In this document: positions 30,789 through 44,003 of the stretch, one piece after another
Layout: each line of letters opens with the position of its first letter
How positions within the stretch are numbered: the stretch's first letter is position 1
Source: Candidatus Enterousia sp.
Lineage (GTDB): Bacteria; Pseudomonadota; Alphaproteobacteria; Rs-D84
NCBI GenBank assembly: GCA_045613925.1
Contig: JAZLBV010000011.1
Span: 4,069 to 68,068, forward strand
Length of the DNA stretch: 64,000 nucleotides
Direction of reading: 5' to 3'
The notes under the pieces: model-generated
What the model saw: only the letters and a program-made list of their open reading frames with translations
Databases searched by the model: none
Told to the model about the DNA's origin: nothing
Position numbers and translations under genes: made by a program

Positions 30789-30864
30789 ATGAAACGAATG
30801 CAAATTTAATTTTGATAAAAAAATAAACGGGATTCATTGGACGCCCCGTTTGCGTCCATTTTTT
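30789..30864 (+). promoter_or_regulatory. Candidate metG attenuator: leader MKRMQI plus alternative hairpins
   Basis: ATG AAA CGA ATG CAA ATT TAA (30789-30809); AAACGGG/CCCGTTT competes with the terminator TGGACGC/GCGTCCA-TTTTTT. Confidence 0.5.
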
Positions 30865-30889: not shown

Positions 30890-32512
30890 ATGGGACAAAA
30901 ATATCTTATAACTTCTGCATTACCATATATAAACGGTGTATTACATATTGGTCATTTGGTTGGCTGTTGGTTGCCAAGTGATGTATATGCCAGATTTTGC
31001 CGTGCCCTGGGTCGTGATGTTCTTTATATAGGTGGCGCTGATGAACATGGAACACCTGCGTTGGTTGGTGCTTTAAAAGAAAATATGCCCATACTAGAAT
31101 ATACTGATAAATATTATGAAAAACATTTGCGGGCTGTATCTGATTTTAATTTGTCTTTTGATTTATATGGACGAACACATACCCAATTACAGCAAGAATT
31201 AATTCACGATTTGTTTAAACGTTTGGAAGAACGTGGTTTGATTGAAGAACGCGAAACAATTCAACCGTTTTGTGTGGATGACGATATGTTCTTGGCAGAC
31301 AGACAATTAGAAGGCACTTGTCCGAAATGTGGTTATGACAAAGCACGTGGCGACCAATGCGATAATTGCAGTGCAACATACGAAGCCGATGAATTATTAA
31401 GCCCACGGTCTGCGATTTCTGGGTCAACCAATATCGAAATGCGAAAAACAAAAAACTTGTTTTTTATGGCCTCTAAGATAGAAAAAGACTGGCGAAAATG
31501 GTTATTGGAGCATGCACCAAAATGGTCTAAGACCGCTTCGGCTATTGCACAAGGTTGGGCTAATGAAGGTTTACGCGACACATCTATTACCCGTGATTTA
31601 AAATGGGGAATTCCTGTGAACAAACCAGGGTATGAAAACAAGGTTTTTTATGTATGGTTTGATGCACCGTGGGGTTATGTTTCTATATCCCAAGCCGCAA
31701 ATAAAGATTGGGAATCTTGGTGGAAAAATCCAGATTGTTTTTATGCACAATTTATGGGCAAAGACAATGTAAAATTCCATTCTGTATTTTTCCCAGAACA
31801 ACAATTAGCAATGGATGATAATTGGAAAACTGTGGATTTATTAAAATCTTTGAATTTCTTGAATTTCGAAGGCGGAAAAATTTCTAAATCAACAGGAAAC
31901 GGAATCTTTTTAGATAATGCGCTTGATATCGCACCAAGTGATTGTTGGCGATATGCACTGATGGCGTCAGCACCCGAAACAGACGACACAGATTTCACTA
32001 TGGCGCGTTTTGTCGATATTGTGAACAAAGATTTAAATGGTTTGCTTGGTAATTTTGTATCACGTGTTTGCAAATTAAGTGCTAAAAATTTCGGTGATGT
32101 TGTACCAAATGGTGGCGATATAGATCCTGAATTAGCAAATAAAATTAATGAAAAAATTGATGAATTAACAAATGCTTTGGAAAAATGCGAATTCAGAAAA
32201 TCTATTGTTGCACTGCGTGAAATTTACGGTATTGCAAATGAATATATGACCATCAAAGAGCCGTGGGCATTGGTTAAAAATGGTGATTTAGATGGTGCCG
32301 CATCTGCGTTAAACGAATGTTTTCAACTGATTGATTTATTCGCACGTGTGTCTGCACCGTTTATCCCAGATGCTGCCAACAAAATTCAAAATATATTTGA
32401 AATAAAACACGATTTTTCATGGCCAACAAAATACGAACACAGAATACAAAATGGCGAAAAATTCGTGGTTCCAGAAAATTTGTTTAATAGGCTTGAAATA
32501 AAAGAAGATTAA
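30890..32512 (+). CDS. metG: Methionine--tRNA ligase (short form, no C-terminal tRNA-binding domain)
   Basis: TSALPYINGVLHIGH, DEHGT, Zn knuckle CPKC..CDNC, YVWFDAP, KISKS. Confidence 0.95.
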   Translation: MGQKYLITSALPYINGVLHIGHLVGCWLPSDVYARFCRALGRDVLYIGGADEHGTPALVGALKENMPILEYTDKYYEKHLRAVSDFNLSFDLYGRTHTQLQQELIHDLFKRLEERGLIEERETIQPFCVDDDMFLADRQLEGTCPKCGYDKARGDQCDNCSATYEADELLSPRSAISGSTNIEMRKTKNLFFMASKIEKDWRKWLLEHAPKWSKTASAIAQGWANEGLRDTSITRDLKWGIPVNKPGYENKVFYVWFDAPWGYVSISQAANKDWESWWKNPDCFYAQFMGKDNVKFHSVFFPEQQLAMDDNWKTVDLLKSLNFLNFEGGKISKSTGNGIFLDNALDIAPSDCWRYALMASAPETDDTDFTMARFVDIVNKDLNGLLGNFVSRVCKLSAKNFGDVVPNGGDIDPELANKINEKIDELTNALEKCEFRKSIVALREIYGIANEYMTIKEPWALVKNGDLDGAASALNECFQLIDLFARVSAPFIPDAANKIQNIFEIKHDFSWPTKYEHRIQNGEKFVVPENLFNRLEIKED

Positions 32513-37793: not shown

Positions 37794-38468
37794 TTATATT
37801 TTTTTATCTGATGAATTACACCATTTTGAAACCGGACAGTTTGCACAATTTGGATGCAGAGCTTTACACGTATAACGACCATGCAGAACCATTGTATGAT
37901 TTGTTATTGCATGATATTTTTTGGGGATTATTTTAAGCAGTTTTTCTTCGACCCGTTCCGGGGTGTTATCGTTTTCATCACACCAATTAAAACGATGTGA
38001 AAGCCGGAAAACATGTGTATCAACACCTATGTTCGGCGCATTCCAAAGCACGTTCATTATAACGTTTGCCGTTTTTTGTCCCACACCTGGCAATTTCATT
38101 AATTCATGTCGCGTGTGATATTTTGTCGGAAATTTATAATTTATATCATCGCTGTTTTCATCTTTTAATTGTTGGGACAGGGCGATAATCGATTTTGCTT
38201 TATTATTAAAAAAAGATATTACTTTGATGTGTTTTTTTAATCCGTCCAATCCCAATGTCAACATTTTATCGGGCGTTGGCGCAATACGAAAAAGTTCGGG
38301 GGTAACTTCATTCACTTTTTTATCAGTGGCCTGGGCTGACAAAATCACCGCCACAGCAAATGTAAATTCATTTGTCGAATATAACTCTGACCGGATGTTC
38401 ATATTCAATGTTGGACAAACATTTTCAAAATAAACATCCGGTGTAAGAGTTATTTTTTGTTTACGCAT
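37794..38468 (-). CDS. nth: Endonuclease III
   Basis: LSAQATDKKVN, HhH LPGVGQKTANV, VDTHV.R, C-x6-C-x2-C-x5-C Fe-S motif. Confidence 0.95.
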   Translation of the reverse strand: MRKQKITLTPDVYFENVCPTLNMNIRSELYSTNEFTFAVAVILSAQATDKKVNEVTPELFRIAPTPDKMLTLGLDGLKKHIKVISFFNNKAKSIIALSQQLKDENSDDINYKFPTKYHTRHELMKLPGVGQKTANVIMNVLWNAPNIGVDTHVFRLSHRFNWCDENDNTPERVEEKLLKIIPKKYHAITNHTMVLHGRYTCKALHPNCANCPVSKWCNSSDKKI

Positions 38469-41400
38469 TTACTTTTTCAATATTTATAGATATATCGTAT
38501 TCTTCAATTTTATCAGAATATTGATTGGCATTGCCAAAGTTCATTTCAACGATTAACGCTTCGTGCATAAGGTATTTTTTATGCAACTCTATTGCATCGC
38601 GCAAGGCAGAATCCGCCGTATAGGTCAATTTTATTCTGTCTGAAACATCCAGATTCGCCGCTTTGCGTGAATCTTGGATAAAGCGTTTTACTTCATTGGC
38701 CAAACCTTCGGCAAAAAGTTCTGAATTAATCTCTATATTCAAAACTACAACCGCGGTGTTATCAGGTAATGTTGCGCCAGTTATACCTTCTTTGATAGTC
38801 AAACGATTTTCAAATTCGTCGCCATTCAAAGTATATTCGCCAACAATTAATTTATCATTTTCAATTTTATAATCACCACGTTTTACCATTGGGACTATAT
38901 CTTTCAAAGCACCACCCAGACGCGCGCCAATTTTTGGTGTGATTAAATATACAAAAGAATCAGCAACTTCATTTATATTTTCAACAAATTTGATTTCTTT
39001 GACATTTAATTCATCGCGGATAATATCGCTATATTCGCGCATATCAACATCCGCAATTGTTGCGTCTTGCAAAGGCAAACGATTACGCAATTTATATTGT
39101 TCGCGCAACTGTTTCCCAGTAGATACTATCATTTGAACACGACGCATATCGTTCACTGTTTTTGTGTCAATATCGCCAGCCGTTGGCCAATCTTCAAGAT
39201 GTACAGATTCTTTGCCTGTTAAATTTTTGAATATGTATTCAGAAATAAACGGTGCAAATGGTGCCAAAACCTTACAAAATGTCGTCAAAACATAGTGCAA
39301 TGTTTCAAATGCACTTTCATCTTCATCCCAAAAGCGGTCGCGATTACGACGAATGTACCAATTATTTAAGACGTCTAAGAATCGTACAAATTCTTTGACT
39401 GCTATATCTGGTTTGTATTCATTCAGCGCATTTGTTGTTGTGTTTATCAAATCGTTCAATTCAGACACTATGTATTTATCAAGCAAATTATCCAATTGCG
39501 GCGCACGCGATACAGTAATATTCGCAGCATTCGCATATAAAGTAAAGAAATGATATGCATTCCAAAGCGGTGTTAATATTGTTTTGATTGTATCATTAAA
39601 AACACGACCTTCTTTGTCTATGCCAACAGATTCAGCCTTCATAAAATTGCTGCCCTGGATAAACAAACGAATTGCATCTGCACCGTATGTTTCTATTTGT
39701 TCACTTGGGTCAACATAGTTATGCAAAGATTTAGAAAACTTTCTTTTTTGTTCATCGCAAATCATACCATTTGCAGACACAACCTTGAACGCAGGTTTAT
39801 CAAACAAAGCAACTGCGATAACCATCAAAGAATAAAACCATCCGCGTGTTTGATCTTGACCTTCGATAATATAATCAGCAGGGAAGGTTGCTTCGAATTT
39901 ATCTTTGTTTTCAAACGGGTAATGCAAGGATGCAAACGGCATAGAACCACTTTCCACCCAACAATCCAAAACATCAGTTATACGATGCCAACCATCTTTT
40001 GTTAAATTATCTAATGTTGGACGATGTAAATCTTTGATTTCAACACCAAAGAAATCTTGCATTTCTTTGATAGACCCAAATACTTTGTATTCACCATCTT
40101 TTTCCCAAATTGGTAATGGAACACCCCAGAATCTATTTCTTGATATTCCCCACGGACGTGCGTTTTCTATCCAGGCCAAAAATCTGTTTCCCGCAGACGT
40201 CCAATTTGTTTGTGTTTTTGTTATCTCTACCAGACGTTCCCGCACTTTTGGAACATCAATATACCAGGCATCAGTTGCACGGTATATCAATTTTTCTTTG
40301 CTGCGTGGACCAAAAGGATAACTGTGTTTGTGTTGATCTTTTTTAACCAATAAACCGTTCGCACGCAAATAATCTATGATTTTTGGATTTGCCACAAATA
40401 TATTTTCACCAGCCCAATCTTTCACAGTGTTATCAAAATTACCATAATCATCAACATTCAATATGATTGGGAATTTTGGATCTATGGCCTTAGCAACAAA
40501 ATAATCATCTTCACCATATGCCGGTGCAATATGAACAATACCCGTACCATCAGAATCACTGACATAATCACCAGGGATTATTTGATATAATAAATCACTT
40601 GTTCCTTCATAGTAATTGAATAATGGTTTATAATGCATACCGACCAATTCAGAACCCTTGACTGTTCCCAAATTTTCTGATGTTGCAAATATTTTTTCAT
40701 AAGCCTTTAATCTGGATTCAGCCAAAACATAAACATGGCCGTCATCGTGTTTCATACGAACATAAGTCATATTCGGATTTACCGCCAACGCAGAATTCGC
40801 AGGTAATGTCCAAGGTGTAGTTGTCCAGGCAATAGCTCTGTCGCCATTTTGTAATTCAAACCAAACCGTCACAGTATCATCAACAATATCTTGGTATTCG
40901 GATGATGCTTCGGAATTAGAAAGCACTGTCCCCAATTTCCAATCAAATGGATTTACTTTGAAATCTTTATAAAGTAATCCCTGGTCATATAATTGTTTTA
41001 AACCCCAGATTACAGATTCCATATAATTAGTATCCATGGTACGATATCCAAAATCGTCACCGCCATCAACCCAACGACCTATGCGTTCTATATAACGCAA
41101 CCATTCATTAGTATATGTCAAAACATCGCTTTTACACATATCACAAAAAGTAGATATACCATCATTTGCAACAATATCTTTGGCACTACGATTTTGTTTC
41201 TTTTCAACACTATTTTCAGCCGGTAATCCGTGGCAATCCCAACCAAGTTCGCGTTCAACATAATTACCACACATCGTTTGAAAACGAGAAACCATATCTT
41301 TAATCGCAGAAACACCCAAATGCCCCCAATGTGGCAAACCGTTTCCGAACGGTGGACCGTCATAAAAACTGAACGGATGCCCCTGTTTAGTCTTGTTCAA

Positions 41401-41496
41401 AGATTTATGAAATGTGTCATCTTTGCGCCAAAATTCCATTACTTCATTTTCAAGTTTTGGAAAATCAGCCTTGGTTTCTGTTTTGCGATATGTCAT
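38461..41496 (-). CDS. ileS: Isoleucine--tRNA ligase, type 2-like
   Basis: YDGPPFGNGLPHWGH, WTTTPWTLPAN, WGISRNRFWG, EGQDQTRGWF, KFSKS; long C-terminus without the type-1 Zn-finger Cys motif. Confidence 0.95.
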   Translation of the reverse strand: MTYRKTETKADFPKLENEVMEFWRKDDTFHKSLNKTKQGHPFSFYDGPPFGNGLPHWGHLGVSAIKDMVSRFQTMCGNYVERELGWDCHGLPAENSVEKKQNRSAKDIVANDGISTFCDMCKSDVLTYTNEWLRYIERIGRWVDGGDDFGYRTMDTNYMESVIWGLKQLYDQGLLYKDFKVNPFDWKLGTVLSNSEASSEYQDIVDDTVTVWFELQNGDRAIAWTTTPWTLPANSALAVNPNMTYVRMKHDDGHVYVLAESRLKAYEKIFATSENLGTVKGSELVGMHYKPLFNYYEGTSDLLYQIIPGDYVSDSDGTGIVHIAPAYGEDDYFVAKAIDPKFPIILNVDDYGNFDNTVKDWAGENIFVANPKIIDYLRANGLLVKKDQHKHSYPFGPRSKEKLIYRATDAWYIDVPKVRERLVEITKTQTNWTSAGNRFLAWIENARPWGISRNRFWGVPLPIWEKDGEYKVFGSIKEMQDFFGVEIKDLHRPTLDNLTKDGWHRITDVLDCWVESGSMPFASLHYPFENKDKFEATFPADYIIEGQDQTRGWFYSLMVIAVALFDKPAFKVVSANGMICDEQKRKFSKSLHNYVDPSEQIETYGADAIRLFIQGSNFMKAESVGIDKEGRVFNDTIKTILTPLWNAYHFFTLYANAANITVSRAPQLDNLLDKYIVSELNDLINTTTNALNEYKPDIAVKEFVRFLDVLNNWYIRRNRDRFWDEDESAFETLHYVLTTFCKVLAPFAPFISEYIFKNLTGKESVHLEDWPTAGDIDTKTVNDMRRVQMIVSTGKQLREQYKLRNRLPLQDATIADVDMREYSDIIRDELNVKEIKFVENINEVADSFVYLITPKIGARLGGALKDIVPMVKRGDYKIENDKLIVGEYTLNGDEFENRLTIKEGITGATLPDNTAVVVLNIEINSELFAEGLANEVKRFIQDSRKAANLDVSDRIKLTYTADSALRDAIELHKKYLMHEALIVEMNFGNANQYSDKIEEYDISINIEKVNA

Positions 41497-41522
41497 TGTT
41501 TTCTACCTTTTTTGTTGCATTT

Positions 41523-41569
41523 AAAAAGGGCGCTTACGCGCCCCAGCCACCGCTAAAGCGCAGCGCCTT
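41523..41569 (-). promoter_or_regulatory. ileS attenuator terminator/antiterminator
   Basis: Terminator GGGCGC-GUAA-GCGCCC-UUUUU (41543-41523); alternative UGCGCUUU(41562-41555):GGGGCGCG(41544-41537) pairing. Confidence 0.8.
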
Positions 41570-41602
41570 TTATTTAATAATAATTATTGCTTTTTGTTTC
41601 AT
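41570..41602 (-). CDS. ileS leader peptide MKQKAIIIIK
   Basis: ATG AAA CAA AAA GCA ATA ATT ATT ATT AAA TAA; four tandem Ile codons upstream of ileS. Confidence 0.85.
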   Translation of the reverse strand: MKQKAIIIIK

Positions 41603-41609
41603 AATGATA

Positions 41610-41638
41610 TTTATACAATGATTTTATTAAAAAATCAA
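41610..41638 (-). promoter_or_regulatory. ileS promoter
   Basis: TTGATT-17 bp-TATAAA, 7 nt before the leader ATG. Confidence 0.65.
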
Positions 41639-41654
41639 GTTGTGATTATAATTT

Positions 41655-44003
41655 TTATGCGCGCAATTTCGCACCACATTTTGTTTCAACATTTGCAATA
41701 ATCGTATTTTGGATTTTCAATAAATCTTCATCCGTCATATTTTGTTCTGGATAAATAGTTATTGTAAATGCCACTGATTTTTTACCGTCGCCCATATCAA
41801 ACGAATCAAATATAACCGCATTTGATATACGCGAATCACAAGATAATGCCGTTGATATTATCTTTTGTGATTCATAATCTTTGTCAACTACAAACGCAAA
41901 ATCACGTGTAATCGGCATAAAATCCGTCATTGGGATTTTTTTATACTTTAATTTCTTTGGCAATAATTCAATGTCTTCAACAATTGCAACCATCACAGGT
42001 GTTTTTATATGCAATTTTTTCGCTATTGACGGATGTAATTCACCAAATTGTGCCAAAACACGTGGCCCCTGGGTAATCGCTCCGTATTTATACGGGTGCG
42101 CCCAAAGAGGCGGATTTTTTGTATCTATGTTGAATTTTTGTGAACCAAGCAAAGATAAAACATCCGCTTTAACATCAAAAACATCAACATTACGATTGCG
42201 TTTCTGCCAATGTTTTGGCGATGTAGCACCGGTTCTGACTATGCAAATAGAGTTATGTTGTTCACCCGGTTTATCACCATCAAACACTGTTCCTAATTCA
42301 AACATATTCATATCTGGAAATCCGCGTTTTTCATTTTTTGCAACCGCAATCAATAAATTTTCCAACAAATTATTTCGTGCAGTATCTAAATCAACAATGA
42401 TTGGATTGGCAATTTTGATTATTGATTTTGTCGTTAACATCTCTTCGATTTTTGAATTGCCAAAACCAAAAGTGATTGCTTCGTTTAATCCACGATTTGC
42501 TAATTTTTCTTTTAATGATAAATTCATATCATTATGCACAATATTCGTTTTGTTTTCTGGTAATGAATCAAAACCTATTTTTTCATAACCATAGATACGA
42601 ATTAAATCAGAAACTATGTTTTCAGGAATCACTACATCCACACGCTGTGGATTTGGTATTATAACCCAATTACCATTTTTGTCGTCTGTGATTTTATATT
42701 GTAATTTTTCAAGTATTTCACGTTGTGTTTTTTCATCTAAATCAATACCTGTTTTTTGTTTGAAATAAGATGGTTTATACACGACGGATTCTGGTGTATA
42801 GGATGCACGACCTGCAACTGATACATTTACAATTTTACCGCCACACGCATCCATTATTATTTTGGCAGCATAGGCCAAGGCGCGTGCGGTTCCATCTGGA
42901 TTAATACCACGTTCATATCTGTACGAAGAATCAGTTGATATACCGTGTCTTTTTGATGATTTACGTACGAACACAGGGTCAAAATACGCTGATTCCAAGA
43001 TAATATTTTTTGTGTTATCGTTTGTCATACCACGCGCACCACCAATTACACCGGCCAAAGCCAAAACACCAGCATCATCTGCGATAACCAAATCTTTGTC
43101 GCAAAGTTCGTGTTCATTTCCGAACAGGTCTGTGAATTTTTCTTTATCTTTGGCCATACGAACAGTTATGTCGCCCTTGATTTCATCAGCATCAAAACAA
43201 TGCATAGGTTGTGCCAAATCATAGCAAATGTAATTAGTAGCATCCACCGGTGCATTTTTTGGATTAATGTCTGCAGAACGTAATCTGTTTTGAATTTTTT
43301 TATCTGACGGTGCGTTTTTAATTCCGTGTATTTCGCAGAAACGATATGTTTTGCACGCATCAGGCGCCAATAAATTCACTTTGCGATAATTTTCTTTTGA
43401 ATCAGATCTTTTTTCTTCTCTATCTGCTATAGTTTCATCAATATTGTTTGCAATATATTTTCCGGCACCCGCAGCGGCCAAATCCAAAGCAATTCCACGC
43501 ACAGATAAATAATCTGGACGATTTGGGGTAATAGATGTTTCCAATACCGCAGACGCAGAATCCTGCATAGCAGATATAGGTTGACCGATAGCTTCTTCTT
43601 TTTCGTTTAATTCGATAATACCGTCATCATCGGTTCCTATGCCCATTTCAGCAGCGCTGCACATCATACCATTTGATTCAACACCACGTAATTTTCCAGG
43701 TTGAATTACAAAATCGCCGATTTTACAGCCCGGCAATGCCAGCGCAGAAACCAATCCAACACGTGCATTTGGCGCACCACATACAACCTGGCGTAATTTA
43801 CCAGAACCATCATCCACTTTTAACACATGTAAATGATCACTGTCTGGATGCTGGGCACATTCGACAATTTTTGCGGCAATTGGCAATATAGGCAATGATA
43901 AATCTTCAACCTCTAACCCAATCGCGTTTAATTTATCAGCAATTTGTTCTGGGGTTAAATCTGTATCAAGATATTCTTTTAACCATTCATAAGACCATTT
44001 CAT
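41655..44003 (-). CDS. pheT: Phenylalanine--tRNA ligase beta subunit
   Basis: MKWSYEWL, HPDSDHL, VVCGAPN, RGVES.GM.CS, ITPNRPD, RYERG, C-terminal FDX-ACB (RDFAFVV). Confidence 0.95.
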   Translation of the reverse strand: MKWSYEWLKEYLDTDLTPEQIADKLNAIGLEVEDLSLPILPIAAKIVECAQHPDSDHLHVLKVDDGSGKLRQVVCGAPNARVGLVSALALPGCKIGDFVIQPGKLRGVESNGMMCSAAEMGIGTDDDGIIELNEKEEAIGQPISAMQDSASAVLETSITPNRPDYLSVRGIALDLAAAGAGKYIANNIDETIADREEKRSDSKENYRKVNLLAPDACKTYRFCEIHGIKNAPSDKKIQNRLRSADINPKNAPVDATNYICYDLAQPMHCFDADEIKGDITVRMAKDKEKFTDLFGNEHELCDKDLVIADDAGVLALAGVIGGARGMTNDNTKNIILESAYFDPVFVRKSSKRHGISTDSSYRYERGINPDGTARALAYAAKIIMDACGGKIVNVSVAGRASYTPESVVYKPSYFKQKTGIDLDEKTQREILEKLQYKITDDKNGNWVIIPNPQRVDVVIPENIVSDLIRIYGYEKIGFDSLPENKTNIVHNDMNLSLKEKLANRGLNEAITFGFGNSKIEEMLTTKSIIKIANPIIVDLDTARNNLLENLLIAVAKNEKRGFPDMNMFELGTVFDGDKPGEQHNSICIVRTGATSPKHWQKRNRNVDVFDVKADVLSLLGSQKFNIDTKNPPLWAHPYKYGAITQGPRVLAQFGELHPSIAKKLHIKTPVMVAIVEDIELLPKKLKYKKIPMTDFMPITRDFAFVVDKDYESQKIISTALSCDSRISNAVIFDSFDMGDGKKSVAFTITIYPEQNMTDEDLLKIQNTIIANVETKCGAKLRA

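Follow-up and report, generated by a model that had tools for sequence, protein, structure and literature searches.

The ileS upstream region

The gene ileS of Candidatus Enterousia sp., which encodes isoleucine-tRNA ligase (IleRS), is preceded on the minus strand by a compact element consisting of a promoter, a 10-codon open reading frame (ORF) with four consecutive isoleucine codons, a GC-rich core and an intrinsic terminator. Enterousia is a member of the reduced-genome order Rs-D84 (PMC12306168). The DNA analyzed is a stretch of 64,000 nucleotides (nt) from this gut alphaproteobacterium (assembly GCA_045613925.1, contig JAZLBV010000011.1, 4,069-68,068 of the forward strand), which is referred to as the window and in which positions are numbered from its first letter. 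The assembly comprises 0.87 Mb in 19 contigs, and the genome has a size of approximately 0.9 Mb. In the order of transcription, the following features lie at the locus:

41633-41638, minus strand: -35 hexamer TTGATT of the leader promoter, read on the strand
41610-41615, minus strand: -10 hexamer TATAAA, following the -35 hexamer after a 17-nt spacer
41570-41602, minus strand: leader ORF MKQKAIIIIK-stop, 10 codons (ATG AAA CAA AAA GCA ATA ATT ATT ATT AAA TAA)
41576-41587, minus strand: isoleucine codons AUA AUU AUU AUU within the leader ORF, the proposed sensor
41523-41543, minus strand: intrinsic terminator hairpin P3, GGGCGC (41543-41538)-GUAA-GCGCCC (41533-41528)-U5 (41527-41523), from a terminator scan and direct reading
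38461-41496, minus strand: ileS, 1011 amino acids, TIGR00392, with an AAGG Shine-Dalgarno sequence at about 41509-41506

The -10 hexamer is separated from the leader ATG (41602-41600) by the 7 nt TATCATT. The sequence UGCGCUUU of segment 2 begins at 41562, which is the eighth nucleotide past the leader stop codon, and the ileS ATG at 41496 follows the U-tract after 26 nt. The span from promoter to terminator is about 115 nt. An earlier reading of the same DNA (the original prediction) had proposed the promoter TTGATT-17-TATAAA, the ATG 7 nt downstream and the frame from 41602 to 41570, all of which were confirmed on the minus strand; the onset of segment 2 and the terminator that it had described were read directly as well, the latter in agreement with the terminator scan.

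The ileS product scores 746 bits against the TIGR00392 model for isoleucine-tRNA ligase (cut-off 621). Full-length alignment with the MupA and MupB models gives about 595 bits, far under their cut-offs, and the enzyme is therefore classified from its sequence as type-2-like, with a MupA/B-like architecture, and not as a Mup enzyme. For an IleRS of this architecture, the induction by mupirocin that the original prediction included is a conjecture. Upstream of the element pheT ends at 41655, and nth, starting at 38468, overlaps the end of ileS. The 870-kb assembly contains 11,646 short ATG-initiated ORFs of 3-15 codons, only four of which encode four consecutive isoleucines, one of these being the ileS leader; an element of this type is present once in the genome.

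Conservation and promoter architecture of the element

The ileS loci of 36 species of the genus (IleRS 69-89% identical) were compared with each other and with those of 24 genomes from five other Rs-D84 families. Conservation in relatives had been named as a check in the original prediction, and the element was found directly upstream of ileS in 36 of 36 genus species. All share one layout, composed of a start codon, 3-6 variable codons, 3-5 isoleucine codons, one K, R, Q or E codon, a stop codon, the GC-rich core and the terminator. Every one of the 36 species matches the leader pattern M-x(3-6)-I(3-5)-[KRQE]-stop, the K/R/Q/E codon being missing in L035 (such handles denote single loci of the comparison). 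Likewise, all carry a GC stem of 5-7 base pairs followed by U5-7, located 18-32 nt ahead of the ileS ATG. As this short interval also holds the Shine-Dalgarno sequence, ileS must be transcribed through the terminator. The gene upstream of the element varies among the species and may be pheT, tRNA-Thr(CGU) in either orientation or an unrelated gene; because this neighbour differs while the linkage to ileS persists, the element belongs to ileS.

Searching public genomes for the pattern gave at least 120 records, which with few exceptions are titled Candidatus Enterousia or Alphaproteobacteria metagenome-assembled genomes (MAGs) from animal or human guts. Eighty of these loci were examined, and in 78 of them the ileS start follows the end of segment 3 at a distance of 32-56 nt. 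About 58 distinct leader peptides occur among 78 further genomes, all varying in the N-terminal part. Two loci stem from MAGs titled Paludibacteraceae (L086) and Muribaculaceae (L106); they carry Enterousia-like IleRS with 79 and 65% identity, respectively, at about 40-42% GC, and the contigs are therefore probably mis-binned in bins named as Bacteroidota. The element is absent from the 24 genomes of the five other Rs-D84 families. Among 60 other alphaproteobacterial families, isoleucine-rich ORFs upstream of ileS (at least four isoleucines in six residues) were barely more frequent than in reverse-complement controls, with four against one.

Of the 28 genus species with a promoter, most keep the pattern TTGNNN or TGGAAA-17-TANNNT. 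The -10 hexamer ends 7 nt ahead of the start codon in 19 of the promoter matches and 8 nt ahead of it in eight; two start-codon choices were corrected, after which nearly all promoter-bearing species fit the spacing of 7-8 nt. No conserved Shine-Dalgarno sequence was found between the -10 hexamer and the leader start in the genus species, and the intervening bases are not conserved. Since no more than 7-8 nt lie between the -10 hexamer and the start codon in the majority of these 28 species, the leader mRNA is probably leaderless, as originally proposed, or has a 5' leader of 1-2 nt. The promoter that had been ascribed to the leader itself is found in these 28 species and not in the remaining eight (L010, L012, L014, L016, L017, L018, L026 and L033), in which the promoterless leader stands behind tRNA-Thr(CGU), with the ORF starting 9-14 nt (45 nt in L010) past the CCA end. 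This location just behind the CCA end implies that tRNA and leader share a transcript, from which 3' processing of the tRNA frees the leader.

Constraint on the leader reading frame

In the genus species the start codon, the isoleucine run and the stop codon are always in frame. Changes in leader length are multiples of three, giving five isoleucines in L010 and three in L031 and L035. Every substitution within the isoleucine run is synonymous (ATT to ATA or ATC), and the N-terminal residues vary freely. The kept frame, the in-frame insertions and deletions and the restriction of the isoleucine run to synonymous changes suggest that the leader ORF is translated.

The run is conserved at the codon level as well. 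Codon identity at isoleucine positions 1-4 is 1.00, 0.93, 1.00 and 0.70; the first codon is AUA in 30 of 30 species, the second AUU in 29 of 30 and the third AUU in all 30. At 18 invariant isoleucine columns inside ileS, pairwise codon identity averages 0.48 and no column is monomorphic, and the genome-wide usage of isoleucine codons is 0.50 for ATT, 0.35 for ATA and 0.15 for ATC. ARAGORN applied to the whole assembly reported 46 tRNA genes, including three with the anticodon CAU and no tRNA-Ile(GAU), the gene of which probably lies in an rRNA operon missing from the 19-contig assembly. As three CAU tRNAs are present, the order of an AUA codon followed by AUU codons may serve separate monitoring of the lysidine-dependent minor tRNA-Ile2, which reads AUA, and of the major tRNA-Ile1.

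Mutually exclusive RNA structures

Downstream of the leader ORF the RNA can form three helices, termed P1, P2 and P3, of which P3 is the terminator hairpin listed above; a further outer helix is specific for the window:

41545-41568, minus strand: P1, anti-antiterminator, with 5' arm 41568-41560, loop GCUUUA and 3' arm 41553-41545, from per-species folds
41537-41562, minus strand: P2, antiterminator, with UGCGCUUUAGC (41562-41552), loop GGUG and GCUGGGGCGCG (41547-41537), a predicted pairing
41529-41567, minus strand: outer helix GGCGCU (41567-41562):AGCGCC (41534-41529), stacked on P2, from the minimum free energy (MFE) fold of the window

In its general form P1 is the pairing of GGCACUGC with GCGGUGGCU, beginning 1-3 nt past the stop codon, and P2 is the pairing of UGCGCUUUGGC with GCUGGGGCGC(A/G). 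P1 is predicted in 36 of 36 species, with a mean free energy of -12.0 kcal/mol, a mean z-score of -2.3 and 80.8% of alignment cells paired. The corresponding values are -15.1 kcal/mol, -3.35 and 94.8% for P2 and -11.5 kcal/mol, -3.06 and 98.3% for P3. The percentages were obtained on an unbiased MAFFT alignment, on which slid controls reach at most 63% paired cells, and the z-scores refer to dinucleotide shuffles. Support for the helices was taken from the pairing percentages relative to these controls, from the per-species folds and from the shuffle z-scores; when RNAalifold was run on the MAFFT alignment, P3 and a stub of 3 base pairs were all that it recovered.

P2 overlaps both P1 and P3, and it shares GGGCGC with P3. 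As each helix overlaps the next one, either P1 and P3 together or P2 can exist. The combination of P1 and P3, at about -23.5 kcal/mol, is the MFE and ground state in most species. The exclusive pairing of segment 2 with segment 3 or of segment 3 with segment 4, on which the original prediction was built, is thus conserved across the genus. The attenuator had also been called complete: the two pairings exist as claimed, and the anti-antiterminator P1 and the outer helix of the window had been overlooked. In one species, L013, matched changes G>A, C>U and G>A occur in segments 2, 3 and 4, and a C-G pair of P3 is replaced by U-A in a compensatory manner.

Proposed attenuation mechanism

The linkage to ileS, the synonymous isoleucine run, the exclusive helices and the geometry of read-through argue, with good confidence, that the element acts as a classical ribosome-mediated (leader-peptide) transcription attenuator that senses charged tRNA-Ile for ileS, in line with the isoleucine-codon-dependent attenuator of the original prediction. 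It most likely raises IleRS production when charged tRNA-Ile is short.

Transcription would start at, or 1-2 nt ahead of, the AUG of the 10-codon ORF, which in some species would lie just behind a co-transcribed tRNA-Thr, and the ORF would be translated while RNA polymerase makes the next ~80 nt. When Ile-tRNA is plentiful, the ribosome would reach the stop codon, cover the start of the 5' arm of P2 and depart, upon which P1 and P3 would form and transcription would terminate 26 nt before ileS. When Ile-tRNA is scarce, the ribosome would dwell on the isoleucine codons, the last one or two of which would be decisive. Its leading edge would then open the base of P1 and leave the 5' arm of P2 uncovered, so that P2 would sequester GGGCGC, P3 would be blocked and the polymerase would read into ileS. 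If the leader is not translated at all, P1 and P3 would form and transcription would terminate.

The ribosome positions assumed in this scheme were compared with the predicted structures by masking, in which covered nucleotides were counted from the last isoleucine codon and the RNA was cut before segment 4. P2 was fully formed with up to 14 nt covered, and its GC core was lost with 15-17 nt covered, the coverage expected of a ribosome whose A site holds the stop codon. The barrier of the direct path from P1 to P2 was about 13.8, 10.4 and 7.8 kcal/mol with 0, 10 and 12 nt covered, respectively. Every genus species has 14-17 nt between the last isoleucine codon and the GCGC of segment 2. This spacing also holds in L035, which has no Lys codon and in which the stop codon lies 14 nt from the structure, compared with 8-10 nt elsewhere.

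Several observations weigh against this mechanism. P1 begins 6-9 nt past the last isoleucine codon, and ribosomes stalled on isoleucine codons 1-2 would miss it. As P1 lies wholly past the stop codon, it has to be assumed that the last isoleucine codon or codons decide and that pausing of the polymerase is probably needed. The original statement that a ribosome at the stop codon occludes segment 2 agrees with the loss of the P2 GC core and is marginal in 7 of the 36 species, in which a 13-nt mask at the stop leaves a truncated P2 as the MFE structure. For the window itself, the MFE fold is P2 with the outer helix, abutting the U-tract, at -27.5 kcal/mol against -25.2 kcal/mol for P1 and P3; because the outer helix GGCGCU:AGCGCC is not conserved in most other species, it is not counted as part of the general mechanism. 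Covariation is sparse and shuffle controls are not exceeded on most measures, which is explained by the sequence being nearly invariant. Finally, the invariance of AUA-AUU-AUU at the codon level goes beyond what a simple attenuation model needs.

Alternative explanations

Conservation at the nucleotide level beyond the needs of the simple model might reflect an added role in trans of the ~80-nt terminated leader RNA or of the 10-residue peptide, for which a precedent exists among the alphaproteobacteria in rnTrpL/peTrpL of Sinorhizobium meliloti (PMC6614838, PMC7298713). Such a role would be compatible with attenuation. The peptide, however, lacks conservation in its N-terminal half, no target came to light, though none was looked for, and this addition to the attenuation mechanism is considered unlikely.

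The position of P1 allows for the inverse logic, in which only a ribosome that has moved past the isoleucine codons, to the Lys or stop codon, melts P1 and allows P2 to form. Stalling on early isoleucine codons would then keep P1 and P3 and leave ileS off, efficient translation of the leader would turn it on, and the element would report general translation capacity. This agrees with the 5' arm of P1, wholly past the stop codon, being reached only from the last isoleucine, Lys or stop codon, and with the species in which the truncated P2 persists under the 13-nt mask at the stop. However, a positive feedback on a synthetase, in which less charged tRNA leads to less enzyme, would be self-defeating and is biologically implausible, and the conservation of exactly the isoleucine codons would be left unexplained. 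In L035 the stop codon is displaced, yet the distance from the isoleucine run to the structure is kept, and the GC core of P2 is lost once 15-17 nt are covered. Weighed together with these points, the inverse logic appears quite improbable.

A translation-independent RNA switch would have the core GCGCUUUGGCGGUGGCUGGGGCGC bind a protein such as IleRS, a tRNA or a ligand, with the mini-ORF being incidental. Very high nucleotide conservation of the core with little covariation, and isoleucine codons conserved at the nucleotide level beyond coding needs, would fit this explanation. The near-invariance of the core, however, is expected because every base serves two of the three competing helices, and an incidental ORF does not account for the maintenance of frame, start and stop codon, for insertions and deletions that stay in frame or for an isoleucine run that changes only synonymously. 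Moreover, the element matches no Rfam family at E≤1, the T-box included, and by direct reading no mimic of an anticodon loop is evident in the loops. A switch of this kind is judged very improbable.

As pheT ends at 41655 without a terminator of its own before the element, the hairpin might be no more than the terminator of the upstream pheST operon, and the AT-rich mini-ORF in the spacer might have arisen by chance. This is ruled out for practical purposes by conservation across differing upstream contexts: the element tracks ileS and not pheT, and in other species its upstream neighbour is tRNA-Thr or an unrelated or divergent gene. It also possesses a conserved promoter of its own, leaves no room for another promoter before ileS and contains one of only four mini-ORFs with four isoleucines genome-wide.

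Relation to known leader systems

The closest mechanistic relative of the proposed ileS attenuator, by analogy, is the pheST attenuator of E. coli, the textbook case of synthetase attenuation, in which the leader pheM has 14 codons, five of them for phenylalanine, and is not leaderless. Both combine a synthetase gene, a short ORF of cognate codons and a terminator/antiterminator switch in what would be charged-tRNA homeostasis, whereas gene and amino acid differ, the pheM ORF is longer and there is no sequence similarity. The enterobacterial ilvGMEDA and ilvBN operons (leaders ilvL and ivbL) and the thr operon (thrL) are biosynthetic, and their leaders mix isoleucine codons with those for valine, leucine or threonine. 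Sensing of Ile-tRNA through leader isoleucine codons and the 1:2, 2:3 and 3:4 logic of the RNA segments are common to these systems and the ileS element, which in contrast has a pure run of four isoleucine codons, only 10 codons in total and a synthetase as target. An ilv leader has been described in Caulobacter (PMC4117421), and Enterousia is described as lacking most biosynthesis (PMC12306168).

In Caulobacter crescentus, an "ileS leader CDS", CCNA_03934, has been named as a negative control (PMC4117421). It resembles the ileS element as a small translated ORF annotated ahead of ileS in another alphaproteobacterium; no report of its sequence, mechanism or regulation was found, the supplements of that paper included. 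In Firmicutes and Actinobacteria, T-boxes are located upstream of ileS (PMC1262725, PMC7583486). They act on the same gene in response to the same signal of charged and uncharged tRNA-Ile, and many of them use a terminator/antiterminator switch. The T-box pairs directly with the tRNA without translation, whereas the ileS element contains an ORF that appears to be translated. A T-box riboswitch was ruled out for the element, as neither a specifier nor a T-box motif nor a match to the Rfam T-box was present. A search of positions 41200-42000 with Rfam cmscan at E≤10 returned only chance-level matches to small RNAs of at most 19.4 bits and nothing at E≤1, and none of the Rfam amino-acid leader families (Thr, Leu, His, Trp, Phe and others) was among the matches up to E=10. 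The resemblance to amino-acid leaders is one of mechanism and not of sequence family.

Leader-peptide attenuators have been predicted for trpS and leuS in Streptomyces (PMC1262725). For ileS, no leader-peptide attenuator was found described in the literature searched, which holds only control by T-boxes and the uncharacterised Caulobacter coding sequence. The element would thus place a textbook mechanism on a gene for which it was undescribed, leaving the known principle unchanged. It would represent a very small natural sensor of Ile-tRNA, conserved in more than 100 uncultured gut species, and it would indicate how a host-associated bacterium with a genome of ~0.9 Mb balances tRNA charging. 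For the annotation of such MAGs it suggests the rule that a small ORF overlooked ahead of ileS should be considered and that ileS should not be taken as constitutively expressed. Its compactness makes the element a convenient test bed for how the position of the ribosome sets RNA folding.

Candidate leaders upstream of ileS in other lineages

Among the 60 other alphaproteobacterial families sampled, only G129, G107 together with G109, and possibly G140 are candidates for an analogue. Upstream of ileS in G129 (locus L206), TTGAAT-17-TATATT is followed after 6 nt by the ATG of a near-leaderless ORF, MKYLKINSVIIIKI*, with a hairpin over the stop codon; the terminator is CCGGGCA-AAG-UGUCCGG-U7, and the ileS ATG lies about 24 nt past the U-tract. 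From this arrangement, the G129 leader looks like an analogous attenuator in another alphaproteobacterial family.

The ORFs upstream of ileS in G107 (L185; MSDIRSISIIISIIIP) and G109 (L180; ...SFDIIP) end in Ile-Ile-Pro-stop. In G109 a hairpin AUUAUCCCC-UAG-GGGGAUGAU is followed by AUUUUU, so that the Ile and Pro codons constitute the 5' arm and the stop codon lies in the loop; G107 carries AUUAUCCCUUAGGGGAU, which is similar to the G109 hairpin. Two genomes of the Rs-D84 family f6, G045 (L037) and G041 (L057), have related ORFs that read ..II..RIP.. and enclose an AUCCCC..GGGGA hairpin. All four represent an ileS leader of another kind.

Candidate leaders upstream of other synthetase genes

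Two further synthetase loci of the window show related arrangements. Upstream of metG (30890-32512), at 30789-30864 on the plus strand, tRNA-Val and a mini-ORF MKRMQI* are 15 nt apart. Downstream of the mini-ORF, the pairing AAACGGG/CCCGTTT is in competition with a terminator, TGGACGC/GCGTCCA-T6. An ORF of the form M-R-M-x-x-stop with the same switch was found in 11 of the 26 genus genomes resolved, and the others have a plain promoter or a terminator. In the gap between rplT and pheS, at about 45058-44990 on the minus strand, a terminator has CCGUAAAG (CCGUCAAG in relatives) as its 5' arm, and a conserved segment, CUUUACGG (CUUGGCGG in relatives), can pair with this arm in competition with the terminator. 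The two segments are separated by a conserved GUUUUGUUUUGU, and their pairing is maintained, with covariation, in all 29 genus genomes.

The conservation of the M-R-M mini-ORF with its switch at metG and of the switch at pheST points, tentatively, to a genus-wide system in which these gut alphaproteobacteria, with reduced genomes and without T-boxes, would control several synthetase genes by miniature ORFs of cognate codons that are leaderless or released from tRNA precursors; such a system is possible rather than probable. The Phe mini-ORF at the pheST switch, MFCFVRI* in this genome, has no conserved start codon, which makes the sensing of phenylalanine by a separate leader peptide doubtful.

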